Origin: Escherichia phage vB_EcoM_CRJP21
Direction: 5' to 3' (one strand)
Sequence record: OQ708376.1
DNA length: 64,000 nucleotides
In this document: positions 2,374-42,753 of the stretch, piece by piece
Numbering within the stretch: the stretch's first letter is position 1
Layout: every line of letters starts with the position of its first letter
Notes under the pieces: generated by a model
The model's input: only the letters and a program-made list of their open reading frames with translations
What the model was told of the DNA's origin: nothing
Database searches by the model: none
Translations under genes and position numbers: made by a program

Positions 2374-3059
2374 TTAAAGATTTAGATAGAATTTTATATG
2401 TACTAAGGGGTGTAATTACATTACATCCACAAATCAATCGAATTGAAAGTACATTTCAGTTGGAGTCAAGAGAAACTCCATATTCACATATATCAAATGT
2501 AGTTGGTTCACTCAGTACTGAAGACTCGTCTTACGATATTTGTGTATGTGAAGTACAACCAAGTTCGGATCTTGGATTTGCTATTTTTGATAAAAATCAA
2601 AATCTCATTAGTATGTTTCAGTGCAATAATCCTTTTTGGAAAACATGCCTGTATCCAGAGTGGGCTATGCTTGATCCAACCAAGAGTACCATTAAAGTTT
2701 ATGACTCTAAAAATGATGAAGTCGTTATTGATTTAGATGAGTCAATGTCAGAGGAAGAACACTTTCAGCTAATGATGATGCGTGCTATGCCTGAATACAA
2801 TGCAATGATTAACACTGTGCAATACATTAAGGATACCATGCCAGCGTTGCGTACACATGAGTTTTGTCATCCGGTATTGTATGAACATCTAGATTTAGAC
2901 TTCAGTACTATTAAATTTAAAGATAGTGTTAAAAAATATATTCAAGAGAATGTTAAATTTGATTTTATTAGTACTATGAACAATAATCCAAAAACTAATT
3001 TTAGGCATCAGTACAATGAATCTTTGTCCGGTGGACGTGATACCAGTTGGTGGAAATAA
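2370..3059 (+). CDS. hypothetical protein
   Basis: 229-aa ORF; apparent TTG start overlapping previous stop by 4 nt; no upstream in-frame ATG. Confidence 0.45.
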   Translation: MIKDLDRILYVLRGVITLHPQINRIESTFQLESRETPYSHISNVVGSLSTEDSSYDICVCEVQPSSDLGFAIFDKNQNLISMFQCNNPFWKTCLYPEWAMLDPTKSTIKVYDSKNDEVVIDLDESMSEEEHFQLMMMRAMPEYNAMINTVQYIKDTMPALRTHEFCHPVLYEHLDLDFSTIKFKDSVKKYIQENVKFDFISTMNNNPKTNFRHQYNESLSGGRDTSWWK

Positions 3060-3060
3060 T

Positions 3061-3324
3061 ATGAATATTAAAGATAGATTACAATTACTGTACACACTTG
3101 AACAGGCTGCTTATGATCTTGTTCGAAAAATCTCAGATGAACTACCTAAAGGAACTAAAGTTCGTGTACGTGAGATGAATTATTTTTCTGGAGTAATTGA
3201 AGAACAAGTACTAACAGTGAATAAAGTAACATACTATGAATCTGAGTTGTCTATTCAGTGTGAATCTGATGATGGATTAATATCATATTATGGAACTGAT
3301 GTAGATATAGAGGTAATAAAATGA
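3061..3324 (+). CDS. hypothetical small protein
   Basis: ATG at 3061 after GGTGGA; track ORF 3016-3324. Confidence 0.45.
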   Translation: MNIKDRLQLLYTLEQAAYDLVRKISDELPKGTKVRVREMNYFSGVIEEQVLTVNKVTYYESELSIQCESDDGLISYYGTDVDIEVIK

Positions 3325-4463
3325 CCCTTTTGCAAATATATGAAGATTTAATGCACTTATGTAATACAAACGATGCATTCTTTTATGTGGATCATAAAAG
3401 TCCTGCTGGTGGCACGTATCGTGTATTCAGTTATCGTCTAGCATCATACACTGATTTCATGCAACCAAATGCGTTGGAAACCCGTGGCTCTATGTGGGAA
3501 ATTGATGAAGAAGGTGACATGATACGTTGTGCAGCACGTACAATGAAAAAGTTCTTCAATGCTTACGAGAATCCTGCTACAATGTTCCCTGCTAACACCA
3601 CATGCGATGACATTGCGGTAGTGATGCCTAAGTTGGATGGCTCGATCATCAGTACTTATCGTGATAATGATGGTGAGATTCGTTGTAAATCACATACTGC
3701 ATTGTATTCTGACCATGCGATTAACAGTACTCGACTTATTAACGAGAACCAGAATTTGTATCAGTACATCGACGAAGCGGAACGTTTAGGTTACACAGTT
3801 AATATGGAGTATACAAGCCCAGAGTACCGAATTGTATTACCATATCAGGTAGAACAACTGTTTGTACTGAACGTTCGTCATCGTGTGAGTGGTGAGTTGC
3901 TATGTGGTAAAGCACTACGTGATAAGTTTCCATGTCTTGCACAGTACAGTACTAATATGACTGGAAAAGATATTCATCACACTTTTCCGGTACGAAATAC
4001 CTTCCGTGAAAGCGTGGAGGAAGTTCATAAAATGCTTGATATTGAGGGTTTTGTGTGCATCCTAAATAATGGGACAATGTGTAAAATAAAGACTGACTGG
4101 TACAGTTCATTACATCTTACAAAAGATAGTATTATTATTGATTCTCATTTATATGAAGCAGTATTAAATGGTTCAAGTGATGATTTAAAACAATTGTTCA
4201 GTACTGATGAATATGCTATGCAAAAGATATTAAGAATGGAACAATTGGTATTTTCGTGCTATAATGCATTACAAGATGAAGTAGAAAGCTTCGTCAAGGA
4301 ACACAAGCACTTGGAGCGAAAGGAATTCGCAATGAAGGTTCAGGAGTGTTTAACTAATGAACTGAATCGTCAGGGCTTGGCCTTTGCAATGTATAACAAT
4401 AAGAAAGTTGATTACAAAGAGACTCTTATAAAATACATGAAAATTGTACTAAAGGATTTTTAG
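3321..4463 (+). CDS. rnlA: RNA ligase 1 (T4 Rnl1-like)
   Basis: 380 aa; N-terminal region (FYVDHKSPAGGTYRVFSYRLASYTDF) matches T4 Rnl1 pattern; ligase motif I lysine in MPKLDGS. Confidence 0.85.
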   Translation: MTLLQIYEDLMHLCNTNDAFFYVDHKSPAGGTYRVFSYRLASYTDFMQPNALETRGSMWEIDEEGDMIRCAARTMKKFFNAYENPATMFPANTTCDDIAVVMPKLDGSIISTYRDNDGEIRCKSHTALYSDHAINSTRLINENQNLYQYIDEAERLGYTVNMEYTSPEYRIVLPYQVEQLFVLNVRHRVSGELLCGKALRDKFPCLAQYSTNMTGKDIHHTFPVRNTFRESVEEVHKMLDIEGFVCILNNGTMCKIKTDWYSSLHLTKDSIIIDSHLYEAVLNGSSDDLKQLFSTDEYAMQKILRMEQLVFSCYNALQDEVESFVKEHKHLERKEFAMKVQECLTNELNRQGLAFAMYNNKKVDYKETLIKYMKIVLKDF

Positions 4464-4493
4464 TACTATCTAGCCTAAGCACAAGGAGAAGTG

Positions 4494-4748
4494 ATGGCTA
4501 AACCTAAGTATAAAAATGACGGTTCCCTTTCTCCGACTGAATTCAGGAAAATACAAGAAGAAATCGATGAATTACAGCACAAACGCTCAATGAAAGGTGT
4601 GAAGATAAGTAAGAAACGAATCGAGAATACCTTCGGATGTAGTAGTACTGAATACAAGAAGAAAAGGAAACCAAAAGGTGTTAAGCCGAGAATACATGAT
4701 GTAACTCGCTATACATCGAAACGTGAAAATAAATTTGATCCACTATAA
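4494..4748 (+). CDS. hypothetical basic protein
   Basis: ATG at 4494 after AAGGAG; lysine/arginine-rich 84 aa. Confidence 0.45.
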   Translation: MAKPKYKNDGSLSPTEFRKIQEEIDELQHKRSMKGVKISKKRIENTFGCSSTEYKKKRKPKGVKPRIHDVTRYTSKRENKFDPL

Positions 4749-4757
4749 GGAGTTCAT

Positions 4758-4988
4758 ATGAAAGTTGAAGTTCAGCATAGTATTGTTCAGGATATGTCAG
4801 TAGTTAAATTTCTTTCTCTGAAAGATTACTTCAGATGTATCAAGTTCCTAGAAGAATCTCAATTACAGTGGACCCCATTAAAGTACAGTTCATCCAATGA
4901 TACTGCTAGTATTCGTTGTGATGAATCTGTACTTGTGAAAATCTCCAAGCGATTTGGAGTAGGAAAAGTTAATGAGCACAGTAAGTGA
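4758..4988 (+). CDS. hypothetical protein
   Basis: 76-aa ORF. Confidence 0.45.
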   Translation: MKVEVQHSIVQDMSVVKFLSLKDYFRCIKFLEESQLQWTPLKYSSSNDTASIRCDESVLVKISKRFGVGKVNEHSK

Positions 4989-5226
4989 CCTAAAATACTA
5001 CAACAAAACTGCGGATACGTTTATTACTCATTTATATGAAGAATTTAGTCGTATCCGTGAGGAATATACAGGTAAATGTATTTTATATAGTTCTTATCAT
5101 AGTGGTGGAATTGAAAGTGCTTACATTACTAAAGTGAAGTTTTCTGATGACTATCAATTACTCTTTGAATTAGATGATTGTTTCGTTATTGAAGCTTGTT
5201 TGATAGTGGATGTTCTAGATAATTGA
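4972..5226 (+). CDS. hypothetical protein
   Basis: 84-aa ORF overlapping previous by 17 nt. Confidence 0.45.
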   Translation: MSTVSDLKYYNKTADTFITHLYEEFSRIREEYTGKCILYSSYHSGGIESAYITKVKFSDDYQLLFELDDCFVIEACLIVDVLDN

Positions 5227-5232
5227 GGACAT

Positions 5233-5547
5233 ATGAATAAAGAACTTGCATTTGAGAGGATCGAAAAGTTAAAGTACATTGAAAAGGAACTAATAGAATC
5301 TGTCGAATCAATGGTCGAAGATTACGTTTTCGATTTTAAGAAAACATTGATTGGATGTAAAGTTAAATGCTGGGATCATACAATCAGAGAATGGTTCAGT
5401 ACTATAATTCTTGATGTTAAAGTATCGCGTACTGCTATTGGTAATTTAGTAAATGGTGAATGCTTTGTATACACTGAATACAATAACGGAACAAGAAACC
5501 TTTCAAGAGGATGGCACAAACTCGAAGATGTAGAATTCATTGAGTAA
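5233..5547 (+). CDS. hypothetical protein
   Basis: 104-aa ORF. Confidence 0.5.
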   Translation: MNKELAFERIEKLKYIEKELIESVESMVEDYVFDFKKTLIGCKVKCWDHTIREWFSTIILDVKVSRTAIGNLVNGECFVYTEYNNGTRNLSRGWHKLEDVEFIE

Positions 5548-5559
5548 CAAGGAGTAATA

Positions 5560-6492
5560 ATGCCAACTATTACACTAACAGTTGGATTACCTGGGTGTGG
5601 TAAAACCACATGGGCAGTTCAAGAAATTAAAAATGCCAAATCCAAGACTATCAACATCAACCGTGATGATATTCGTGAATCTATGGCTGGGTCACATGAT
5701 GCTTACAAATTCAACGATGCTAATGAGCAGTACGTAACTAATTTACAGTTCAGTGCAGCAAATTCAGCAGCAGAGAATGGTTGGAACATCATCATATCCG
5801 ATACAAACCTTAAACAACATTTCCGTAATCTCTGGAAAGTATGGGCTAAAGATAATGGTTATGATTACAAAGAAAAGAACTTCTATGATGATTTTGTACC
5901 TAATGAAGACCGTGGTGCAGATGTTCATGAATTCTTTAAGATTAAAGAGTTCGTAAAACTTTGTAAGAAATATAACCTCCAGCGTGAGCGTTCAGTACAA
6001 GATGATATCATTGACACAATGGCAGATACGTACTATTATAGTAAGGCATTGCACATTGGTTACTATGGTAATTCACGAGAAGCTGCTGTTATCGTTGATA
6101 TTGACGGTACTCTTGCTCATAAATGGGGTCGTAATCCTTACGATGAAAGTACTGTTCTTCAGGATACACCTGATGAAGAAGTTATTTTGTCTATTATCGC
6201 TGAAGCAGTTTTTCATAAACGCAAGATTATCGTCATGAGTGGGCGTACTGAAGGGTGTCGTGCTGATACCGAACAGTGGCTTAAGAATTGGGGTGTTCCT
6301 TACGATGCATTGTTTATGCGAGATATCGATGATAAACGTCCTGATGATGTTGTAAAATTCGACCTGTACATGAAAAATGTGGTTGATCATTACGATGTTA
6401 AAAAGGTATATGATGACCGAGCACAAGTCGTATTCATGTGGCGTAAGCTACTTGGTTTGAAAGTTTTTCAAGTTGCAGAAGGAAATTTCTAA
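5560..6492 (+). CDS. pseT: polynucleotide 5'-kinase / 3'-phosphatase (T4 Pnk-like)
   Basis: P-loop GLPGCGKTT, NINRDDIR, and HAD-type phosphatase motif VDIDGTL; colinear with T4 Pnk over full length. Confidence 0.85.
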   Translation: MPTITLTVGLPGCGKTTWAVQEIKNAKSKTININRDDIRESMAGSHDAYKFNDANEQYVTNLQFSAANSAAENGWNIIISDTNLKQHFRNLWKVWAKDNGYDYKEKNFYDDFVPNEDRGADVHEFFKIKEFVKLCKKYNLQRERSVQDDIIDTMADTYYYSKALHIGYYGNSREAAVIVDIDGTLAHKWGRNPYDESTVLQDTPDEEVILSIIAEAVFHKRKIIVMSGRTEGCRADTEQWLKNWGVPYDALFMRDIDDKRPDDVVKFDLYMKNVVDHYDVKKVYDDRAQVVFMWRKLLGLKVFQVAEGNF

Positions 6493-6497
6493 TACAA

Positions 6498-6528
6498 AAG
6501 GGATCATATGTTGGTCCCTTTTTCTTTT
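6498..6528 (+). terminator. intrinsic terminator
   Basis: AGGGATCA / TGGTCCCT stem followed by T-tract. Confidence 0.6.
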
Positions 6529-6541
6529 AAGGAATATTATA

Positions 6542-6718
6542 ATGAATGTAAAAACACAGATGTTATTACAAAAAGAATACTTAGAAAATATAGAAATGTT
6601 CTATAGATTGTCTTTATACGAAAATAAACATAAAAAATATAGCTTTTCTAAACATCTAAACACAAGTACTGATGATTATCTATTTTCATCAATGTTTTAT
6701 GTGAGAGGTTTATTATAA
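6542..6718 (+). CDS. hypothetical small protein
   Basis: ATG at 6542 with AAGGAA 7 nt upstream; track ORF 6473-6718 starts inside terminator. Confidence 0.4.
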   Translation: MNVKTQMLLQKEYLENIEMFYRLSLYENKHKKYSFSKHLNTSTDDYLFSSMFYVRGLL

Positions 6719-6978
6719 TGGATAAATTTCACACAGATATAACACAGATAGGTAATCTTATCAATAGTCTAATTACTGATTTAGAAGAAAAGTATTTAGG
6801 TCGAAATGTATACGTAGAAATGTATGAAACATATGGTGTTATTGATATGATTTATTACAGTGCATTGAAGTGTGAAATACGTTTAACAGTATGTTTGTTT
6901 GAAAAAAATACATTCAACAGAAGTACTGCAATTCGCCAAGTTGGAGTTGATGATATAGAATTATACGAGGAACAATGA
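6718..6978 (+). CDS. hypothetical small protein (small-protein family with KY-G-V motif)
   Basis: 86 aa; motif LEEKYLGRNVYV resembles neighbours 6975, 9670, 10673. Confidence 0.45.
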   Translation: MDKFHTDITQIGNLINSLITDLEEKYLGRNVYVEMYETYGVIDMIYYSALKCEIRLTVCLFEKNTFNRSTAIRQVGVDDIELYEEQ

Positions 6979-7229
6979 TGTTTGAGCAGGACTTAGAGAT
7001 ATTCAAAAGTCATATTGATTACTTGACTATATTAGAAAATGATTTAACTACAAAGTACAAAGGTATTCGTGTTCTGTGCTGGTATGATGATTGGGATTAT
7101 AAACGTGAACTCACGATTGATCGAATTTATTTCAGTGACGGTGTACTAAATGTACATGGTGTAAATGATTTTGGTCATTCATATACATATTCTAATAATG
7201 CTAAATTTAAAAGGATCTACAATGAATGA
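6975..7229 (+). CDS. hypothetical small protein (same family)
   Basis: 84 aa; LTTKYKGIRVLCW. Confidence 0.45.
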   Translation: MMFEQDLEIFKSHIDYLTILENDLTTKYKGIRVLCWYDDWDYKRELTIDRIYFSDGVLNVHGVNDFGHSYTYSNNAKFKRIYNE

Positions 7230-8180: not shown

Positions 8181-8507
8181 GTGAATGGTTCGTTTTTAAC
8201 AATATTAGAAAAGACAACCGAGATGCTTTCTAGCTCGTTAATGCAGATTTTCAGTACTAATAATTTATACAATACCCAGGTGTTAGATTCAATTAATAAT
8301 AACTATGTGGTAAGTATATCTGATGAAATATGTCCATTTAACGCGTATTCAATTTATAGTGTAGAAGAGTTTCATATATCCGAGATTCGATGTGGTTTTG
8401 GTGCTTGGTTAGTTCTAAATGAACGTTCAGGGTTGTCTTTATACATCGAAGAAGTTAGTAAATTTATATACAAAGGAGTAGAATATGTTAACCCCAATTA
8501 TTCTTAG
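8181..8507 (+). CDS. hypothetical protein
   Basis: 108-aa ORF, apparent GTG start after GGGAGAAG. Confidence 0.4.
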   Translation: MNGSFLTILEKTTEMLSSSLMQIFSTNNLYNTQVLDSINNNYVVSISDEICPFNAYSIYSVEEFHISEIRCGFGAWLVLNERSGLSLYIEEVSKFIYKGVEYVNPNYS

Positions 8508-9123
8508 CAGTGCATATGTAATCGGTATTATTATTTCTGGTATGCTTGCATATAACTATAACCGAAGTGTTCTAGGTTATGTAGTACTTGGTACAGTACT
8601 AAGTCCAGTGATTGCTATTGGTCTTCTTGTTATGCTAGGTGAGAAAAATACAAGCTTCTTTATTACTAAAGAACTTGATAAAATCACCCCAGCACCAGAA
8701 ACAGTTATTCCAGAAGTTAAAGAAGAAGTTAAAGAAGTTAAAGAAGTTGAAGTGCAAATGCAAGTTAAAGTGTATAATACACTTGAAGAAACTGACCCTA
8801 AAGTTGTAGTGAATGTAGTTCCAGTCGTTGAAGAGGTGAAACCAAAAGCTCCTAAAGTACAGAAAAATACTAAAACTGCAAAGAAAGCTCGTTACACTAA
8901 AGGTAAGAACAAAGGTAAATCTAAGGATGAACCACAACTAGGTGTTCATGACCATACTGCACAAATTGCAACGGCAGCGACCGCAGCAGCAATCGTAACA
9001 TCACCAATCTACAACAATGATGATTACAGTGATTATAGCCGTCACAGCAGTTCTTCCTCTGATTCTTGTTCCTATGATAGCTCTAGTTCTGATTCAAGTT
9101 CATCTTCTGGAAGTTGTGATTAA
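8485..9123 (+). CDS. membrane protein with KEV repeats and Ser/Asp-rich tail
   Basis: two N-terminal hydrophobic helices; (VKEE/VKEV) repeats; C-terminal SSSSSDSCSYDSSSSDSSSSSGS. Confidence 0.5.
   Translation: MLTPIILSSAYVIGIIISGMLAYNYNRSVLGYVVLGTVLSPVIAIGLLVMLGEKNTSFFITKELDKITPAPETVIPEVKEEVKEVKEVEVQMQVKVYNTLEETDPKVVVNVVPVVEEVKPKAPKVQKNTKTAKKARYTKGKNKGKSKDEPQLGVHDHTAQIATAATAAAIVTSPIYNNDDYSDYSRHSSSSSDSCSYDSSSSDSSSSSGSCD
8713..8753 (+). repeat. short tandem repeat (GTTAAAGAA-like units) inside CDS
   Basis: gaagttaaagaagaagttaaagaagttaaagaagttgaag encodes EVKEEVKEVKEVEV. Confidence 0.6.
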
Positions 9124-9452
9124 TGTCAATGAAACCACTAATTCAACATAATATTTTTTATAGGTCATTATTCAAAATTCAAGATGATTTTTATCAGACG
9201 TTGAGTAATGTTCTTATAGGTAAAACTGTACGATATTCGGAACAATACATCAAACGTATGACAAGTCAGTATATTGACCCTGAATACGAATACGACATTG
9301 AACACATTAATCCCAATACTAGAATGAAAATCATTGAGATATTTAAGAATGGGAGAACTATAGGTGCTGAAATTGAGTACTTAAATTGTGATTGTTACAT
9401 AGATACAGAGTTGAGTTTGGATTATCTTGTTTTAGTGGATGATGAGGAATAA
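9123..9452 (+). CDS. hypothetical protein
   Basis: 109-aa ORF. Confidence 0.45.
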   Translation: MSMKPLIQHNIFYRSLFKIQDDFYQTLSNVLIGKTVRYSEQYIKRMTSQYIDPEYEYDIEHINPNTRMKIIEIFKNGRTIGAEIEYLNCDCYIDTELSLDYLVLVDDEE

Positions 9453-9454
9453 TT

Positions 9455-9670
9455 ATGATAACATTTTTCGCAATATATGGATTTGTAGCATTTGTTACAT
9501 TTATAACCAACTTTCTAGTACTTAATTGGGGTTGTTTTAAAGATGAAATCATGATTATCATGAATCTCCAAACAGCAGCACTGATGGCTATTATTTGGCC
9601 TGTAACGTTAGTATATATTTTTATTTCACTTACCCAAGATATTATTAACAAATATAAGAGAAAGAAATAA
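9455..9670 (+). CDS. small membrane protein
   Basis: 71 aa, two hydrophobic segments. Confidence 0.45.
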   Translation: MITFFAIYGFVAFVTFITNFLVLNWGCFKDEIMIIMNLQTAALMAIIWPVTLVYIFISLTQDIINKYKRKK

Positions 9671-9921
9671 TGTTCAACAACGACTTATCACATTTGCGAT
9701 ATCTTATGTCTTTGGCTGATGATTTTATAAATGATCTGAAGCCAAAATATATTGGTCAAGAAGTACGATTAATAAACTCCAGAGGGTATGGAAAGTATAT
9801 TATTACTGATATGTATATTAGTGGTGGTGAATGGCGTTTTAAAATTAATACTTATCTTAAAGATGGTTCTTTTGCTGGAACACAAGTTACTAAACACACT
9901 AATATTATATGGTTGGAGTAA
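9670..9921 (+). CDS. hypothetical small protein (KY-G-V family)
   Basis: 83 aa; LKPKYIGQEVRLI. Confidence 0.45.
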   Translation: MFNNDLSHLRYLMSLADDFINDLKPKYIGQEVRLINSRGYGKYIITDMYISGGEWRFKINTYLKDGSFAGTQVTKHTNIIWLE

Positions 9922-9923
9922 TA

Positions 9924-10667
9924 ATGAAACATTTCTTAGAAGTAACCGTACCTGATGATAAAGATTTATACATTGTAGGTGATTTGCATGGTAATGGTAA
10001 ACTATGGGATGCTACAGTGAAAGAATTTGGTATTACACACAATGATTATGTTTTCAGTGTAGGTGATATTATCGACCGTGGAGAACAAAATTCAAAGCTC
10101 CTTTTTGAATTTTTGTTCGGAGAAAATCGTTACATGATTGCGGGTAATCATGAGATGATGTGCGTTGATTCGGAAACACTTCGAGATTGGTATCATTGTT
10201 GGATAAGTAATGGTGGTGATAAATTCCTTGATGAAGTTGGAGGAACAGGTATTCAATTCTTTCGTCAGTACTTGAAAGATCTCCCTATGATTATCCAAAT
10301 CAATCACCGAGGATTGAAGATTGGGTTAGTTCATGCTGGAGTTCCGTTGGAATATACAACATGGGAACGATTTGTTAATGGGACAAAATCACTTAGTGCT
10401 GATATAATTGATAAGTGCTTGTGGGATAGAAAAACATTCGATTATTGTAGAACTAATAATACATATTATGCACCTAAGTTAGATGGAGTGCATTGTGTCT
10501 TTAGTGGACATACAGCAGTTACAGACCCACTCATTTACGGTAATCGCATTTGGATTGATAGTCAGTTCTTGACGGGTGACTTAACTCTCGCTACTCCACA
10601 AAGTGGTGGAATGAGATACTTACGTAAAGAAAAAGATGAGTACTCATTCAATCGTTTCAAAAGGTAA
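9924..10667 (+). CDS. Ser/Thr protein phosphatase-family metallophosphatase
   Basis: GDLHGN, GDIIDRGEQ, GNHEMM motifs (PPP/ApaH-like); ATG 9924. Confidence 0.7.
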   Translation: MKHFLEVTVPDDKDLYIVGDLHGNGKLWDATVKEFGITHNDYVFSVGDIIDRGEQNSKLLFEFLFGENRYMIAGNHEMMCVDSETLRDWYHCWISNGGDKFLDEVGGTGIQFFRQYLKDLPMIIQINHRGLKIGLVHAGVPLEYTTWERFVNGTKSLSADIIDKCLWDRKTFDYCRTNNTYYAPKLDGVHCVFSGHTAVTDPLIYGNRIWIDSQFLTGDLTLATPQSGGMRYLRKEKDEYSFNRFKR

Positions 10668-10672
10668 TAATT

Positions 10673-10942
10673 ATGCATGATGTAGTTAAAAAATATTTGA
10701 ATGATAGATATATTATGAAAAAATCTATTAATTCTATCCTAAAAGACCATGCTAATCAAATACGTGAGATTCTATCAAATAAACTTATTGGTTGTTCAGT
10801 TGAGTTCAACTACAAAAAGAATGTCGTGAAGATTGGAGTTATTAAACGTGTAGTTGCTGTTTATGACCAAAATGTATATGTTGAAATTGAATATGATGGT
10901 AAATTATCACAATTAAGTACTGAAGATTTAACATTTTTATAA
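10673..10942 (+). CDS. hypothetical small protein
   Basis: 89-aa ORF. Confidence 0.45.
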   Translation: MHDVVKKYLNDRYIMKKSINSILKDHANQIREILSNKLIGCSVEFNYKKNVVKIGVIKRVVAVYDQNVYVEIEYDGKLSQLSTEDLTFL

Positions 10943-12800: not shown

Positions 12801-14219
12801 ATGAGCATTTTAGCAATTCTTGAAAGCATTAAAAATACTAGCAGTACACTAGGCAAAAAAGCTATTCTTGAACAAAATAAAGATAATGTAACTTTACAAA
12901 AAGTACTGAAATATACTCTAGACCCTTCTATCGTTAGTGGCTATAAGAAGCTCCCTGCCGCTGATGACGTATATCAACATATGACGTTAGATGAAGCAAT
13001 TGATAAGCTAGAATGCATTTACAAGCGTGATGTGACAGGAAATGCGGGGCGTGATTTCATTGCTTCAGTACTGGGTTCTGTATCTGAAGATGATCAGGAA
13101 GTTCTCCGTAAAATGCTTACTAAAAACCTTGATTGTGGTATTCAAGAAAAGAACTGCAATGATGTATTTGGTAAAGGCTTTATTAAAGACGAACCATATA
13201 TGCGTTGTTCTTTGATTGACAAAAAGACTGCAAAGAACATCAACTTCAAAGATTATGGTTACGCTATATCAGAAGTGAAAATGGATGGTCAGTACTTGAA
13301 CCACGTTGTTATTAATGGTTCATTAACTTCTACATCCCGTAATGGTAAACTATACGACTTCCTGGGTTGTCGTGATGGTGAGATGGCAGGTCTTGCTCAC
13401 ATCATCCAAAGTAAAGATGAACGTTTTAGTAGTGGTGTGGTCTTTATGGGGGAAGGTGTAGTACTGGACAATGATGGGGAAACCATTCTCCCACGCACTA
13501 CTGGCAACGGTATAATTCAGAAAGCTGGTAAAGATAGCATCAGTCAGAATGAAGCAATGCGTACTGTATTCGTTCTATGGGATGTTGTTCCATATGATGC
13601 ATTTTGTGAAGGTGTATGGGATGTAAAACGTAAAGAACGTCGCGAGATCTTAGTAGATGCAATTAACGAACTCAATAGTGATTTTGTTCGTATGGTTGGA
13701 TTCCGTAAAGTTCTAAACATCAAAGAAGCATTTGAGTACAATAGTGAACTAATGAACGAAGGTGAAGAGGGTTCAGTACTGAAATGTGAAGATGGTATCT
13801 GGAAATCTCACACTTCTCCGAAGCAGTTGAAAATGAAATTGAAAATGCAACTAGACTTGCGTATTGTTGGTTTCAATGAAGGTGAAGGTAAACGTAAAGG
13901 AAGCCTAGGTTCTTTACAACTGGAAAGTGCTTGTGGTTCATTGAAAGTTAATGTGGGTACTGGTATCAAAGAGAAAGATGCTGAATGGACATTTAAAACC
14001 ATTTGGGAAAGAATGCAAGAACTTATTGGTAAAGTGGTTACAGTTGAGTGTAATGACATTGTATTCGAGAAGCGTACTGGTGAGCCATCACTGTTCTTAC
14101 CAGTGTTTATTGAATTTAGATTTGACAAAAACACTTGTGACGACTATACTCGTATTTTAGAAATTCGTGATAGTGCTGTTGAGGTGTTCTCAAACAGTAT
14201 CATTGAATCACTTGGCTAA
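12801..14219 (+). CDS. 30: ATP-dependent DNA ligase (T4 gp30-like)
   Basis: N-terminus ILAILESIKNTSSTLGKKAILEQNKDN parallels T4 ligase; adenylation motif KMDGQ. Confidence 0.85.
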   Translation: MSILAILESIKNTSSTLGKKAILEQNKDNVTLQKVLKYTLDPSIVSGYKKLPAADDVYQHMTLDEAIDKLECIYKRDVTGNAGRDFIASVLGSVSEDDQEVLRKMLTKNLDCGIQEKNCNDVFGKGFIKDEPYMRCSLIDKKTAKNINFKDYGYAISEVKMDGQYLNHVVINGSLTSTSRNGKLYDFLGCRDGEMAGLAHIIQSKDERFSSGVVFMGEGVVLDNDGETILPRTTGNGIIQKAGKDSISQNEAMRTVFVLWDVVPYDAFCEGVWDVKRKERREILVDAINELNSDFVRMVGFRKVLNIKEAFEYNSELMNEGEEGSVLKCEDGIWKSHTSPKQLKMKLKMQLDLRIVGFNEGEGKRKGSLGSLQLESACGSLKVNVGTGIKEKDAEWTFKTIWERMQELIGKVVTVECNDIVFEKRTGEPSLFLPVFIEFRFDKNTCDDYTRILEIRDSAVEVFSNSIIESLG

Positions 14220-14238: not shown

Positions 14239-15030
14239 ATGAAATTTGTTGTAACGTCTGACGTACACGGTGGTACTGATTACCTCCATAGTGGTGATTA
14301 CAGTGATACAGTACTGATTATTGCTGGGGACTTCGATGAAGTTAAACGCAGTCGTTACCGTACTGGTATAGAATCACTATGTAAGCAGTTTAAGAATGTA
14401 GTACTGGTTCCTGGCAATCATGAATATTATGGTTCCAATATCCACAAAACGCATAAAGTACTGTCCGATATGCAAGATGAGATTCCTAATTTCATCTTTT
14501 TGCAAAACAAATTTGTATGGCTGGATGGAGTACTGCTTGTTGGTAGTACTCTGTGGACAGACTTCGATAAAGGTAATTCTTTGACGAAGTTTGATGCTCG
14601 TCTGAAGATGAACGATTACAAACATATCCGTCATGGAACAACATCAGAGCCTTGGCGTAAGAAACTGACACCAGATGATACTGAGTTTATGCATCACAAA
14701 GATAAACAATTTATCAAAAATTCTATTGACACAGTTCGCTTTATGCATGATAATGATTTCAAGGTCATCGTGGTTACCCATCACGCACCAAGTTATCAAA
14801 GTGTTTCACCAAAATATAAAAATGATTCACTGAATGGTTGTTACTGTTCCGATATGGATCAGTACATTGAAGATTTGGGTGCTGATGTTTGGATTCATGG
14901 TCATGTTCATAGTAGTTTTGACTACCACATTGGTAAGACACGTATCATTTGTAATCCACGAGGCTATGAATCATACAGTGGAGCTTGTGAGAATTTTGAT
15001 TACAATCCTAAATTTGTATTTGAAATTTAA
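14239..15030 (+). CDS. calcineurin-like metallophosphoesterase
   Basis: SDVHGG, GDFDE, GNHEYYG, THHAP, GHVH motifs. Confidence 0.65.
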   Translation: MKFVVTSDVHGGTDYLHSGDYSDTVLIIAGDFDEVKRSRYRTGIESLCKQFKNVVLVPGNHEYYGSNIHKTHKVLSDMQDEIPNFIFLQNKFVWLDGVLLVGSTLWTDFDKGNSLTKFDARLKMNDYKHIRHGTTSEPWRKKLTPDDTEFMHHKDKQFIKNSIDTVRFMHDNDFKVIVVTHHAPSYQSVSPKYKNDSLNGCYCSDMDQYIEDLGADVWIHGHVHSSFDYHIGKTRIICNPRGYESYSGACENFDYNPKFVFEI

Positions 15031-23622: not shown

Positions 23623-25062
23623 ATGAAAAAATATACAATTGACACAAACGTACTACTATCTGACCCTAATGCATCTATTGCTTTTGATGGTGCTGCAATC
23701 ATTCTACCATTTACAGTACTGGAAGAATTGGATTCAATTAAGAGTCGTAATGTAGATGTTTCACGCGATGCTCGTGTTGCTATTCGTAACATTGAAGCAA
23801 TTATTGCAGATGCATCACATGATGAGATTAGTAGTACTGGTGTTAATATTGCTGATGTTCATACCAATATGAATCCTGATAGCAAATTGTTTGTTATTAC
23901 AAACGAAGAAGCTGAAGCACTAATTCGTACTAAAGGTTCAGAAGAGAAAGTTCAAACCCTTCTCAAAAGCACAGTACCTGATGATAAAATCATTCTGGTA
24001 GCTTTAGCAACAGAATCAGTACTGGTAACTCGTGATATCAACATGCGTATCAAAGCACTAAGTTATGGTGTCGAGGTACAAGATTATCGCCATGATATTG
24101 TTATTGGTGATAGTGATTTGATTCACATTGGTCAACACCATTTGGAAATTAATTTTTGGGAAGTATATAGCAACTTATCCAATACTAATATTCAATCCGA
24201 ACAAGTTGGTCGTCGTTTGTATCATTACATTTCTAAAAGCTTGATTGAACATTTGCTTCCACAAAATCTATGCATCGGTGATTATCTATATGATGATGCA
24301 GACGTATTATTTGTGTACGAAGGTCAATCAGCAATTGAGGAAGATGATGGAACACTAACACCAGAAGATATTTTGGTATTCCAAGATATTGGACAATCAG
24401 TAGCTTTACGTGCTAAAGTATGGGATATTAAAGCAAAGAATATCCAACAAGCACTCGCCATCAACAGTATTCTCGATCCTGATGTACATCTAACAGTACT
24501 GCTAGGTTCTGCTGGTACTGGTAAAACACTAATTACGATTGCTACTGCATTAGAATTAGTACTGGAAAAACGTAAATACGACCGAATCATCTTCTCTAAA
24601 ACTCAAGACTCACAGTTTGAAGATATTGGTTTCTTGCCAGGTTCAGAAGCAGAAAAAGTGATTCCATTCTGTGGAGCCGCAATTGACGCGTTAGAGTTTC
24701 TTCATAAAGATGATGCTAACCCTCAAGGTAGTATTGAAGAGATTATGAAACGTAATGTTATTCAATTTAAAGCACTAAACTTTGTACGTGGACGTTCATT
24801 CACCAACACTATTCTAGTAGTTGATGAATTCCAAAACATTACACCTGCACAAGCTAAAACAATCTTGACACGAGCAGGATTAAACTGTAAAGTAGTAATT
24901 ATGGGTAACTTGAGTCAGATTGACAGTAAGTTTATTAGTCCTGTTAACAGTGGTTTGACATATGTAACTGAGAAGTTTAAAGATTGGGCAGGTTGTCGTG
25001 TCATCGAACTAGAAGGTGTTGTTCGTTCACCACTTGCAGAATTTGCTGAAGAAAATATGTAA
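23623..25062 (+). CDS. phoH: PIN-domain + PhoH-like ATPase
   Basis: N-terminal PIN (IDTNVLL), Walker A GSAGTGKTL, Walker B VVDEFQN. Confidence 0.8.
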   Translation: MKKYTIDTNVLLSDPNASIAFDGAAIILPFTVLEELDSIKSRNVDVSRDARVAIRNIEAIIADASHDEISSTGVNIADVHTNMNPDSKLFVITNEEAEALIRTKGSEEKVQTLLKSTVPDDKIILVALATESVLVTRDINMRIKALSYGVEVQDYRHDIVIGDSDLIHIGQHHLEINFWEVYSNLSNTNIQSEQVGRRLYHYISKSLIEHLLPQNLCIGDYLYDDADVLFVYEGQSAIEEDDGTLTPEDILVFQDIGQSVALRAKVWDIKAKNIQQALAINSILDPDVHLTVLLGSAGTGKTLITIATALELVLEKRKYDRIIFSKTQDSQFEDIGFLPGSEAEKVIPFCGAAIDALEFLHKDDANPQGSIEEIMKRNVIQFKALNFVRGRSFTNTILVVDEFQNITPAQAKTILTRAGLNCKVVIMGNLSQIDSKFISPVNSGLTYVTEKFKDWAGCRVIELEGVVRSPLAEFAEENM

Positions 25063-30682: not shown

Positions 30683-32551
30683 ATGTTGTCTGGTGATATT
30701 AAATATCTTCACCCCCAGATGATTTCAAAATACAAGGAATGTACAATGCAATTAGATAAATTATATACTGACGTAACGAATTTCCTCAATCAGAGCAATA
30801 CTGATCTTACCAACGAAAATGCGAACAAAGATGCGAAATGCGTCAATACACACAGGGATTTACTTGCAGGTATCCTATCTAAGCATTATTCACAAGATGT
30901 TATTCCAAATGAGCTAATGCAGTGGCATAATGATGGTTATGGTCATATTCATGATTTAGACTACTATATCAGCCCATTAACCAACTGTTGCTTAGTTAAC
31001 TACCCAGATATGCTAAAAAATGGATTTACCATTGGTTGTGCCAAAATTGAAGAACCAAAGAGTTTTAGTGTAGCATGTACAGTACTGACACAGATTGTAC
31101 AAGCTGTAGCTAGTTCCCAATACGGCGGTCAATCGTTGGCTCACATTGATGTCGGTTTAGAACCTTACGTTCAAAAGTCATGGGATAAGCTGTTAGAAAA
31201 ACAAAAGAAATATAATCTAAGTGATGAGTTCATTGAAGAAGAATTACGAAAAGAAGTATACGATGGATGTCAAACATTACTTTACCAGACTAATTCAATG
31301 ATTAGCACTAATGGACAAGCTGCATTCATTTCTCTTAGTTTAGGGCTTAATACTTCTAAATTTGGTAAATTAATCACTGAACAGTACTTAAAAGTTCATG
31401 AGAATGGTTTAGGTAAAGATAAGATTACTCCAGTGTTTCCTAAAGTTATTTTCTTTCTACAAGATGGTATAAACATGAATGCAAATGATAGTAATTATGA
31501 CCTTAAACATTTAGCTATGCGTTGTGCATCAAAACGAATCTACCCAGACTTTGTTTCAGTACCATTAAATCACAAAGTGACTGGAAGTAGTAGTACTGCT
31601 GTAACACCGATGGGCTGTCGTTCATTCTTAGGAAAATGGGAAGATTCAAATGGAAATGAACAATACAACGGTCGTTTCAATTTAGGTGTGGTTTCTATCA
31701 ATTTACCTCTAATTGCTCTTGAGAGTACTTCTGACGGAGAGTTTTTTGATAAGATAGACGAGCATATGAATATTGCATATCGTGCTCAGATGAACCGTGT
31801 GGAGCGTTTAAAAGGCACTAAAGCGAAGCAGAATCCAATTTTGTTCATGGAAGGTGCATTATCACGTTTAGGTGCAGAAGAAACCATTGACAAGCTATTT
31901 TACAATGGTTATGCTAGTATTAGTATTGGTTATGTTGGTCTTGTTGAATGTTCAGAAATCCTCACTGGTTCTATCAGTAAGGAGTTTTGTATGTCAGTAC
32001 TGAATTATATGAAAGTAAAATGTGATGAGTTCAAAAAAGAAAGTAATATTGCTTTTAGTCTATATGGAACTCCAGCAGAGTCGCTTTGTTATAAATTTGC
32101 ACGTTGCATTGAAGCAAAATATCCTTCAGTACTAAAACGTGATTACATCACAAATTCCTTCCATCAACCAGTATGGGTAGAAAGTTCTCCATTTGATAAA
32201 TGGAGTTATGAAGAAGGGTTTGCTTACCTAAGTAACGGTGGAAATATCAGTTATGTTGAATCTCCAAACTTAGCAAACAACATTCAAGCACTTGAAACAT
32301 TAGTTAACTATGCGTACACTAAGATACCATATTTTGGTATTAACCAACCAGTTGACCATTGTTATGAATGTGGCTTCCAGGGTGAGTTCAGTGTAGATAA
32401 ACATGGTTTCCACTGTCCTGTATGTGATAATCGTAATGAGAAGACAATCTCAGTGATTCGTCGTGTTTCTGGGTACTTGGGTAATCCTTCTTCGCGTGGC
32501 TTCAATAAAGGCAAGCAACAAGAGTGTTGTGAGCGTATTCAGCACAAATAA
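30683..32551 (+). CDS. nrdD: anaerobic ribonucleoside-triphosphate reductase
   Basis: colinear with T4 NrdD (NENANKD, TNCCLV, C-terminal Cys cluster, glycyl-radical RVSGYLG); true start may be ATG 30746 (AAGGAA RBS); no intron. Confidence 0.85.
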   Translation: MLSGDIKYLHPQMISKYKECTMQLDKLYTDVTNFLNQSNTDLTNENANKDAKCVNTHRDLLAGILSKHYSQDVIPNELMQWHNDGYGHIHDLDYYISPLTNCCLVNYPDMLKNGFTIGCAKIEEPKSFSVACTVLTQIVQAVASSQYGGQSLAHIDVGLEPYVQKSWDKLLEKQKKYNLSDEFIEEELRKEVYDGCQTLLYQTNSMISTNGQAAFISLSLGLNTSKFGKLITEQYLKVHENGLGKDKITPVFPKVIFFLQDGINMNANDSNYDLKHLAMRCASKRIYPDFVSVPLNHKVTGSSSTAVTPMGCRSFLGKWEDSNGNEQYNGRFNLGVVSINLPLIALESTSDGEFFDKIDEHMNIAYRAQMNRVERLKGTKAKQNPILFMEGALSRLGAEETIDKLFYNGYASISIGYVGLVECSEILTGSISKEFCMSVLNYMKVKCDEFKKESNIAFSLYGTPAESLCYKFARCIEAKYPSVLKRDYITNSFHQPVWVESSPFDKWSYEEGFAYLSNGGNISYVESPNLANNIQALETLVNYAYTKIPYFGINQPVDHCYECGFQGEFSVDKHGFHCPVCDNRNEKTISVIRRVSGYLGNPSSRGFNKGKQQECCERIQHK

Positions 32552-41122: not shown

Positions 41123-41524
41123 ATGACTACAGTTGATGATATCTATAGCACTATACGCAATATGAGTACAGATAGAAAAGTATTTGGCGATAAAGAAAAA
41201 TCTAAGTGTTATGGTATTGATTCTTTTGATATAATTTCTTATGAGTACAATACAAGTGGAAATAGTTCACTGAATATCGTCTGTCCTCGTGATCCAGAAA
41301 ATAATTTTATGTATGTTGAAATTAATAATGATGGAATGTTTTTTACAAAAGTTTTAAAAGGTGGAATTAATTACGAACCTATTGAATGTATGAATGAAGA
41401 AACTTTCTTTCAAGAAGATACAATTATCAATTTAGGTTTTAGTTTTGATGATTATAAAACATTAGAACATGACTTTAATCGTTATTATAATGGTTTCTTA
41501 AAGGAGTTAACAATTTATCTATGA
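41123..41524 (+). CDS. hypothetical protein
   Basis: 133-aa ORF. Confidence 0.5.
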   Translation: MTTVDDIYSTIRNMSTDRKVFGDKEKSKCYGIDSFDIISYEYNTSGNSSLNIVCPRDPENNFMYVEINNDGMFFTKVLKGGINYEPIECMNEETFFQEDTIINLGFSFDDYKTLEHDFNRYYNGFLKELTIYL

Positions 41525-42753
41525 ATAACCAATATATTGAACAAACAATAGTGAAACACTTGGCTGGGTCACAAGCCTACGGAACCAGTACACCTGAAAG
41601 TGATACTGATTATCGTGGTATTTTTCTTGCTAATAAAGAATTTATTCTTACACCCTTCTATAAGGTCAAAGAGGTAGCTGATAAAAGCGAAGAAGATACT
41701 AAATTCTATGAGTTGAATCAGTATTTAAAATTATACACTGAAGCTAACCCTAATATTCTTGAATCACTTTGGGTTGAACCTGAACACATTGTTGAAAGTA
41801 CTGAAATTTATGACTATCTTCGTTCATTTAACCAAAAACTTCTTAGTTCCAAGATTGCATTTTCATACACTGGATATGCATATAATCAGATTAAGCGTAT
41901 GACAAATCATCACGGTTGGATGGATAAAGAGCGTATTGCTGAAAAACGATTAAATGAGATTTTAGAAGAACACCCAGTCGATGAGGTTCTTGCGTGGATG
42001 TATGATTCATTTCCACAATATCTTGTTGAACGTTTAGATACATCGAACTTACATCCATTTAATGCTAAAAAGATTGATTTTGAAAAATATATGCGTGATA
42101 CGTCATTGCAGTTAGTTTCGAAAAATCCATTAAAGCAATATCATTTTGTAAGATTAGTGCATAACTACACTACTGATAAAATTCTAGATCGTGATTTCAA
42201 TTTATTGAATTTTAATAATGGCTATGAACTAATTCATTACGGAGAAAACATTTTTGCGATTATTAAAAATCCGAATGAAAGTACTATCAATGGTGATGGT
42301 TCATTGCGTTATTTTTCTAAAGAGCGTAGTACTGAAGAGTTGAAAACCAAACCAGAACTGATTGTCAAATTTAACGAAAAAGAATATCAGGAAAATAGTG
42401 AGAATAGGAAAAGTTATCATAAATGGAAAGAAAATCGTAATGCCAAACGTGCTATTTTAGAATCACAGCACGGATACGATTGTAAACATGCTATGCACAC
42501 AATCCGACTTTTGAATAGTGCAGAAGAAGCATTACAAAGTGGTATTATTCAAGTTAAACGTCCTGATGCACAAATGCTGATGGATATTCGCAATGGTAAG
42601 TGGAAATATGAAGAAGTATTAGAATACTTTGATGATAAAGTAAAATATATTCGTGATGTTCTATATAAGAAATCTGTACTTCCTAAAAAACCAAACATCA
42701 AATTAGCATCAAAAATTATCATTGATATTAGAGAAATGCAATGGTATAAGTAA
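41521..42753 (+). CDS. Pol-beta superfamily nucleotidyltransferase
   Basis: N-terminal GSQAYGTSTPESDTDYRGIF fits GS...SDxD nucleotidyltransferase signature. Confidence 0.55.
   Translation: MNNQYIEQTIVKHLAGSQAYGTSTPESDTDYRGIFLANKEFILTPFYKVKEVADKSEEDTKFYELNQYLKLYTEANPNILESLWVEPEHIVESTEIYDYLRSFNQKLLSSKIAFSYTGYAYNQIKRMTNHHGWMDKERIAEKRLNEILEEHPVDEVLAWMYDSFPQYLVERLDTSNLHPFNAKKIDFEKYMRDTSLQLVSKNPLKQYHFVRLVHNYTTDKILDRDFNLLNFNNGYELIHYGENIFAIIKNPNESTINGDGSLRYFSKERSTEELKTKPELIVKFNEKEYQENSENRKSYHKWKENRNAKRAILESQHGYDCKHAMHTIRLLNSAEEALQSGIIQVKRPDAQMLMDIRNGKWKYEEVLEYFDDKVKYIRDVLYKKSVLPKKPNIKLASKIIIDIREMQWYK

Follow-up and report, generated by a model that had tools for sequence, protein, structure and literature searches.

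Do the small genes lodged between the two RNA-repair enzymes of a jumbo coliphage belong to the repair pathway themselves? The question is raised by a 64,000-nt stretch of Escherichia phage vB_EcoM_CRJP21 (OQ708376.1), referred to at its full length as the window, in which the genes for a T4-type RNA ligase 1 (Rnl1) and a polynucleotide 5′-kinase/3′-phosphatase (Pnk) are separated by four small open reading frames (ORFs), here ORF1 to ORF4. A preliminary description of this DNA had placed all six genes at the coordinates that we recover, on the + strand (Table 1), and had proposed that the four small ones may be accessory or regulatory to repair. The enzyme pair and its reading as a tRNA-repair device are already known for the 121Q/PBECO4-like phages. 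What goes beyond the published account is the conservation of two of the four, ORF1 and ORF2, alongside the enzymes across the whole Rak2-like clade; an accessory role is possible for these two on the strength of strict co-conservation and synteny, and the proposal did not survive for ORF3 and ORF4.

Conserved and variable genes between rnl1 and pnk

The comparison covered six lineages, namely the window, RaK2 (Alcyoneusvirus), fHe-Yen9-04 (Eneladusvirus), CBB (Mimasvirus), Xanthomonas phage XaC1 and Salmonella phage 7t3, with every annotated ORF at the locus searched all-against-all by phmmer at a threshold of E<1e-3. Among the window's locus proteins, only Rnl1 (E=1e-114 to 1e-163), ORF1 (1e-18 to 1e-23 in Yen9-04, CBB, 7t3 and XaC1; 9e-5 in RaK2), ORF2 (1e-25 to 1e-31) and Pnk (1e-75 to 1e-134) match all the other lineages. 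ORF3 and ORF4, which have no homolog outside their genus in these loci, gave no match at this threshold, nor did any of the five ORFs that follow pnk; of the three ORFs upstream, one is likewise without a match and two match weakly in one or two lineages only. The co-conservation analysis that the preliminary description had recommended hence separates the four small genes into a pair that accompanies the enzymes clade-wide and a pair that does not. Of the loci first examined, uncultivated viral contigs included, 24 carry an ORF2 relative, and each of these keeps the order Rnl1-ORF1-ORF2-Pnk on one strand; in the final totals ORF2 lies inside the cassette in 26 of the 26 loci that carry it and ORF1 in 27 of 27, and most flanking genes turn over.

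Identity to the window proteins in the main clade amounts to 49-64% for Rnl1, 61-73% for ORF2 and 43-64% for Pnk, and to 52-61% for ORF1 where tblastn with the window protein detects it, making ORF2 at once the smallest and the best conserved of the four cassette proteins, above either enzyme. Even the most diverged relatives of ORF1 (39-43% identical) are found directly between an Rnl1 and a Pnk. The cassette order also holds in two loci (L026 and L027) whose Rnl1 is 38% identical to that of the window, about as distant as the T4 enzyme, and in which a diverged ORF2 (profile E=2.7e-10) lies 9 nt before pnk; in the distant contig L028, ORF1 is in place between rnl1 and pnk. GenBank phage records with ORF2 number 70 and those with ORF1 61, and the two counts agree for every genus but Klebsiella (10 for ORF2 vs 1 for ORF1). 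Most lineages display the arrangement rnl1-ORF1-ORFb-ORF2-pnk, in which the stop of ORF2 overlaps the start of pnk by 13-44 nt; such an overlap suggests that the two genes are, in most lineages, probably translationally coupled. ORFb, a third small family (~75 aa) located between ORF1 and ORF2, is less well conserved and is missing from Asteriusvirus and RaK2. Its weak similarity to the diverged ORF2 of L026 (E=0.004) hints that ORFb and ORF2 may be old tandem duplicates.

DNA identity of the region reaches 99.7% with Escherichia phage vB_EcoM_E9.1, stands at 98.8% for both G17 and Sharanji, and is 97.7% for 121Q; matching gene calls are annotated in E9.1, G17 and 121Q. The close matches belong to the 121Q/PBECO4 group of 310-384 kb jumbo phages, with G17, phAPEC6 and SD-2_S15 filed under Asteriusvirus. 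Of 35 such matches, ten cover the query in full and are expected to have the four-ORF layout (confirmed in G17), about 17 lack 273 bp, and about 585 bp are missing from four, all of them Salmonella phages. The alignment of these close relatives shows hardly any variation in ORF1 and ORF2. In phAPEC6 the stretch from the 3′ end of ORF2 to the start of pnk is swapped for a single 103-aa ORF, a diverged relative of ORF4 (phmmer E=3.5e-18, 34% identity), and in Salmonella phage SD-2_S15 the ORF3/ORF4 stretch is absent, so that ORF2 runs straight into pnk. Among the aligned loci, ORF3 is present in G17 (L001) and L010 and absent in phAPEC6 (L002) and SD-2_S15 (L003). The intervening ORFs number four in the window, G17 and 121Q, three in phAPEC6 and PBECO4 and two in the Salmonella SD phages; in the other genera there are five in RaK2 and three each in Yen9-04, CBB, 7t3 and XaC1.

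Because phAPEC6 and SD-2_S15 keep both enzymes while this stretch is replaced or absent, ORF3 and ORF4 are, as judged from the aligned loci, dispensable strain-variable inserts. They resemble the small genes of rapid turnover with which this part of the genome is filled rather than factors specific to repair, and we consider them very probably unrelated to repair. ORF3 matches no PHROG and no Pfam family, and ORF4 belongs to PHROG 31355. An iterated profile search with strict inclusion gathers with ORF4 three further ORFs of the window, one of them directly upstream of rnl1 (Table 1), together with phAPEC6 gp373 and RaK2 gp463; these proteins display an N-terminal helix followed by a β-rich C-terminal part. 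A second small-paralog family has three members in the window (Table 1). The similarity of ORF3 is marginal, both to this second family (E about 0.005-0.02) and to the small-paralog families overall (E=0.005-0.15), and it was not recruited at the strict threshold. The two small-paralog families (~85-110 aa, with an N-terminal helix and a β-rich part) are spread over the first 11 kb of the window.

The enzyme pair and its probable transcription unit

Rnl1 is matched by Pfam RNA_lig_T4_1 (E=9.4e-16; 58.8 bits against a cut-off of 28.3), PHROG 562 (E=3e-109) and the T4 Rnl1 structures 2c5u (E=1.5e-56), 5tt6 and 9do4 (the latter two also at about 1e-56). Its residues 268-379 constitute the Rnl1-specific C-terminal domain (T4_Rnl1_C, E=6.6e-17); C-terminal domains of this type are all-helical and are implicated in tRNA specificity. 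Across five aligned sequences (the window protein, a T4-type Rnl1 and three Rak2-like orthologs), motif I of the window protein, K104-L-D-G, pairs with the T4-type K-E-D-G, with K104, D106 and G107 invariant, and R55, K77, F78, E163, E242-G243 and K255/K257 likewise occupy invariant columns. We take the T4 counterparts to be K99 of motif I, the R54/K75/F77 element, and E159, E227-G228 and K240/K242 of motifs III, IV and V.

Pnk combines Pfam AAA_33 (E=3.2e-13) with HAD_PNKP (E=1.5e-43; 148.8 bits against a cut-off of 27.6), belongs to PHROG 505 (E=1.8e-95) and is matched over its full length by the T4 Pnk structure 1ltq (E=1.5e-40) and the bacterial Pnkp1 chain 4xrp_A (E=2.4e-31). Its P-loop (G9-L-P-G-C-G-K15-T16), D36 and R39 are conserved in the alignments with T4-type Pnk and with 1ltq, and the phosphatase motif D180-I-D-G-T184, R191, S227-G-R229 and D285-D-R287 are invariant; the corresponding T4 residues presumably include D35 and R38 of the kinase and the phosphatase nucleophile D165. 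The one residue in doubt is the counterpart of R126 of T4 Pnk, opposite which both alignments place a Gln, with an Arg one position on that is invariant among the Rak2-like proteins, and the offset is likely a one-residue register shift. Compared with the T4-type protein, the kinase domain is also longer by an insertion of about 30 aa.

By these scores the family assignments of both proteins are far beyond chance, and by alignment the two correspond to the T4 proteins as orthologs over their full length and retain the catalytic motifs; as these motifs are conserved, we predict both enzymes to be active. The T4-type pair recognized in the preliminary description is borne out by the Pfam, PHROG and Protein Data Bank matches alike.

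A different label for pnk has entered the literature. The paper on phage Sharanji (OR545507) treats the pnk ortholog, annotated as a 'zeta toxin', as a lysis protein that inhibits cell-wall synthesis (PMC11895373). For the window protein, the Pfam Zeta_toxin score of 20.2 bits falls below the cut-off of 22.3 and is of the generic P-loop kinase kind, and HAD_PNKP takes up the C-terminal half. On domain content the label of the Sharanji ortholog is a published mis-annotation, which we correct here.

The pair in itself adds nothing new. The names RNA ligase (RnlA) and polynucleotide kinase are already in most of the close GenBank records, and the two are annotated in dozens of records overall and have been discussed as a tRNA-repair or counter-Prr device since 2013, when the RaK2 genome paper described gp464 and gp470 as 'two RNA repair proteins' and put forward a pathway of tRNA repair (PMC3622015). 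A counter-Prr role was suggested, and only suggested, by the phAPEC6 authors in 2020 (PMC7247149), and a 2021 survey presents Rnl1 with PNK-HAD as the common RNA repair set among jumbo phages (PMC7824862). The literature that we found on the Rak2-like group makes no comment on conserved small proteins between rnl1 and pnk.

In all likelihood the two enzymes perform RNA healing and sealing, and the region as a whole is probably an RNA break-repair operon of an Asteriusvirus (121Q/PBECO4-like) jumbo coliphage. In T4, Rnl1 (gp63, rnlA) and Pnkp (pseT) repair tRNA-Lys that has been cut by the anticodon nuclease PrrC. By analogy, a host ribonuclease (e.g., an anticodon nuclease) would cut tRNA or another RNA to leave 2′,3′-cyclic-phosphate and 5′-OH ends, of which the former would be stripped of the 3′ or cyclic phosphate by the HAD domain of Pnk and the latter phosphorylated by its P-loop kinase domain. 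Rnl1, adenylylated on K104, would then move AMP to the 5′ phosphate and seal the break, in a three-step ATP-dependent pathway.

The junctions between successive genes from rnl1 to pnk range from -17 to +30 nt, and the start codon of rnl1 shares an ATGA with the stop of the upstream ORF. Every gene has a Shine-Dalgarno sequence, AAGGAG for ORF1, ORF2 and pnk and GAGG or AGGA for the rest; in ORF1 the mechanical first start is a GTG at 4491, and it is the ATG at 4494 that carries the AAGGAG site. The hairpin that follows pnk (Table 1) consists of an 11-bp stem and a U-rich tract (-14.4 kcal/mol; z=-3.6 vs shuffles), and the record of phage G17 has a terminator annotated at the equivalent position. 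The pattern scan found no terminator-like site on the + strand from 2575 to 6438, and rnl1 through pnk therefore most simply form one transcription unit, which possibly extends from the upstream genes. Matches to the sigma-70 consensus are no more numerous than in shuffled sequence, and no such promoter was assigned to the operon.

Table 1. Features of the window and of compared loci (L numbers)
Feature	Locus	Coordinates	Strand	Remarks
Rnl1 (RnlA/gp63 type RNA ligase 1)	window	3321..4463	+	380 aa
ORF1	window	4494..4748	+	84 aa, basic; directly 3′ of rnl1
ORF2	window	4758..4988	+	76 aa
ORF3	window	4972..5226	+	84 aa, acidic; 17-nt overlap with 3′ end of ORF2
ORF4	window	5233..5547	+	104 aa
Pnk (Pnkp, PseT-type polynucleotide 5′-kinase/3′-phosphatase)	window	5560..6492	+	310 aa
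Intrinsic-terminator-like hairpin	window	6496..6522	+	directly 3′ of pnk stop; pattern scan and fold energy
ORFb	L006	2761-2988		between ORF1 and ORF2
ORFb	L007	2764-2988		between ORF1 and ORF2
ORFb	L009	2764-2991		between ORF1 and ORF2
ORFb	L008	2770-2994		between ORF1 and ORF2
ORFb	L026	5242-5469		between ORF1 and ORF2
ORF4 family	window	3016-3324		directly upstream of rnl1
ORF4 family	window	9123-9452		
ORF4 family	window	10673-10942		
Second small-paralog family	window	6718-6978		
Second small-paralog family	window	6975-7229		
Second small-paralog family	window	9670-9921		
212-aa ORF	window	8485-9123	+	features read from translation
NinI/lambda-type Ser/Thr metallophosphatase	window	9909-10667	+	
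NinI-type relative	L011	9114-9803		
NinI-type relative	L012	9423-10163		
NinI-type relative	L014	8925-9611		
NinI-type relative	L017	10090-10221		
NinI-type relative	L028	7044-7760		E=1.7e-49 to window protein
ATP-dependent DNA ligase	window	12801-14219	+	
Second metallophosphoesterase	window	14239-15030	+	
PIN-PhoH fusion	window	23623-25062	+	
Anaerobic ribonucleotide reductase (NrdD)	window	30683-32551	+	
RlaP-domain protein (RNA-ligase-associated Pol-beta nucleotidyltransferase)	window	41521-42753	+	410 aa; PF10127 E=6.4e-16; PHROG 388

Possible roles of ORF1 and ORF2

ORF1 (PHROG 15306; 61 protein clusters) is strongly basic, with a pI of 10.1-10.5 in six lineages (10.1 in the window), and is marked by the conserved motifs MAKPKY, TPEEhRKI..EID, S..GV, KR..NTFG.SST.YKK..KP and RIYD..RY. 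Its AlphaFold2 model, built from 44 sequences (pLDDT 77, pTM 0.45), features a long helix at 14-45, a short helix and flexible Lys/Arg-rich ends. The model offers no globular fold by which ORF1 could be recognized, and the shape that it does display would suit a nucleic-acid-binding or partner-binding protein. ORF2 is predicted to adopt a ββαββα fold, a small α/β domain. Neither protein has a known homolog outside its clade family or an informative fold match; an exhaustive profile search with ORF2 against 1.84 billion representatives yielded three representatives, all of its own family, and the remaining matches, being weak, in multiple stretches and to long proteins, were treated as spurious.

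We posit, with a probability of roughly 0.3-0.4, that ORF1 and ORF2 are functional partners of the enzyme pair, the entire case being conservation, synteny and probable translational coupling. As examples, they could bind the RNA substrate, bridge or regulate Pnk and Rnl1, or block the nuclease. A fuller proposal, which we consider less likely than not, gives the Rak2-like phages a four- or five-protein tRNA repair module in place of the two-enzyme T4 system. ORF1, ORF2 and, in most lineages, ORFb would there serve a Pnk-Rnl1 complex as its dedicated subunits or regulators, and might hold the tRNA halves, bridge healing to sealing, or gate the enzymes.

The main rival, to which we would give even odds, is that ORF1 and ORF2 are conserved for some task outside RNA repair (e.g., host takeover or transcription control) and have kept their places beside the enzymes simply for want of an event to part them. 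Several observations speak for it or count against a partnership. The interval from rnlA to pseT in T4-type phages is occupied by unrelated genes, whose annotations name a host transcription inhibitor, a membrane protein and an Rz1-type lipoprotein, so that position in this interval does not imply a repair role. ORF1 and ORF2 lack functional homology, sequence and profile searches detect no relative of either in T4, and the T4 pair is known to work without them. The cassette also has its irregularities: in Klebsiella phage RaK2, ORF1 is cut to 57 aa and diverged; in L028, the 74-aa ORF that follows ORF1 is not detectably ORF2 by sequence or profile search; and in L026, ORF2 departs from the main clade at several residues that never vary there, a difference that speaks against a catalytic site. 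Against mere failure to separate stands the fact that the interval does recombine, with ORFb, ORF3/ORF4 and RaK2 gp467-469 coming and going, yet ORF1 stays after rnl1 and ORF2 before pnk in every carrying locus, even where Rnl1 is down to 38% identity. The overlap of ORF2 with the start of pnk in most lineages and the lack of conservation of most flanking genes likewise sit poorly with passive linkage.

Alternatively, ORF1 and/or ORF2 could be anti-defense proteins that inhibit or mask a host RNA-targeting nuclease, forming a second line beside repair and not subunits of it. Small clade-restricted proteins co-encoded with counter-defense enzymes are typical of anti-defense genes, and ORF1 and ORF2 are both limited to one phage clade and strictly linked to the repair genes. 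However, neither shows homology to any described inhibitor, and the 61-73% identity of ORF2 over hosts from Xanthomonas to Escherichia fits a phage-internal partner better than a fast-evolving host target, leaving this explanation improbable. Least likely is that the Rnl1 homolog serves mainly in virion assembly, with RNA repair not the primary function of the locus: database names do include 'tail fiber protein attachment catalyst' and T4 gp63 does have tail-fiber attachment as a second activity, but the ligase catalytic residues and the Rnl1-specific C-terminal domain are conserved, rnl1 is co-encoded with pnk throughout the clade and, as weak negative evidence, gp372-gp376 are unnamed in the main text of the phAPEC6 virion-proteome paper.

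ORF1 and ORF2 represent two uncharacterized families that are locked between rnl1 and pnk in a clade of 310-384 kb phages with hosts from Escherichia to Xanthomonas. If the two do act as partners in repair, phages would mend RNA in a more elaborate way than the textbook account of T4 has it, and ORF1 and ORF2, which make simple pull-down and knock-out targets, could usefully add to the Rnl1/Pnk reagents. The useful result for the four small genes is negative for ORF3 and ORF4, as variable fillers, and mildly positive for ORF1 and ORF2.

Neighboring genes and known RNA repair systems

ORFs of the + strand cover nearly the whole window, GC skew is positive in every one of its 2-kb bins, and no tRNA genes were found across its 64 kb. 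A NinI/lambda-type Ser/Thr metallophosphatase is encoded downstream of pnk, at a distance of 0.7-4 kb in several lineages, with relatives in five of the compared loci, the distant L028 included (Table 1). This phosphatase could be an additional RNA end-healing enzyme by analogy, because a 2′,3′-cyclic phosphodiesterase activity has been reported for the lambda phosphatase (PMC2190708). Farther along the + strand follow an ATP-dependent DNA ligase and then a second metallophosphoesterase, a PIN-PhoH fusion and an anaerobic ribonucleotide reductase (NrdD); the order pnk, Metallophos gene, DNA ligase recurs in the distant contig L028. The translation of a 212-aa ORF is hydrophobic in N-terminal segments, has a repeat region rich in Lys, Glu and Val, and carries a C-terminal tail rich in Ser and Asp (SSSSSDS...). 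An RlaP-domain protein is the third RNA-repair-type enzyme in the window.

Orthologous loci are already annotated in other Rak2-like phages. The loci of RaK2 (gp464/gp470), phAPEC6 (gp376/gp372), 121Q (438/443) and G17 (G17_00487/00482) are the same locus as that of the window, whose Rnl1 shares 64% and whose Pnk shares 65% identity with the RaK2 protein; across the group the number of intervening ORFs varies from 2 to 5. The T4 pair is alike in domain architectures and intact catalytic motifs, and T4-type phages share the gene order and strand, with rnlA followed by a few small ORFs and then pseT, but identity to the T4-type proteins drops to 34% for Rnl1 and 41% for Pnk. The intervals differ altogether: that of the T4-type phages holds alc, pseT.3 and pseT.2 plus two small ORFs, and neither phmmer at E<0.1 nor a six-frame profile search relates any of these genes to ORF1-ORF4.

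A jumbo-phage survey found that the distribution of RlaP mirrors that of RNA ligases (PMC7824862). The window resembles RlaP-associated RNA repair (PF10127) in encoding such a protein as well, although its gene lies 35 kb from the rnl1-pnk operon, beside tail-fiber genes and not beside a ligase gene. T4 is not known to encode an RlaP.

The bacterial Pnkp1-Rnl-Hen1 and Pnkp-Hen1 complexes are related to the phage system through Pnk, which matches Pnkp1 (4xrp). Such bacterial systems show that a Pnkp of the T4 type is able to function as one subunit of a larger complex, together with a distinct ligase and an accessory protein, and these complexes hence provide a precedent for the idea that ORF1 and ORF2 are partners of the enzymes. 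The likeness does not extend to the parts, as the phage locus has no Hen1 methyltransferase, and ORF1 and ORF2 are far too small and not homologous to it. The proposed four- or five-protein module, if real, would give phages an equivalent of the bacterial Pnkp1-Rnl-Hen1 assembly that is made up of protein families not described before.

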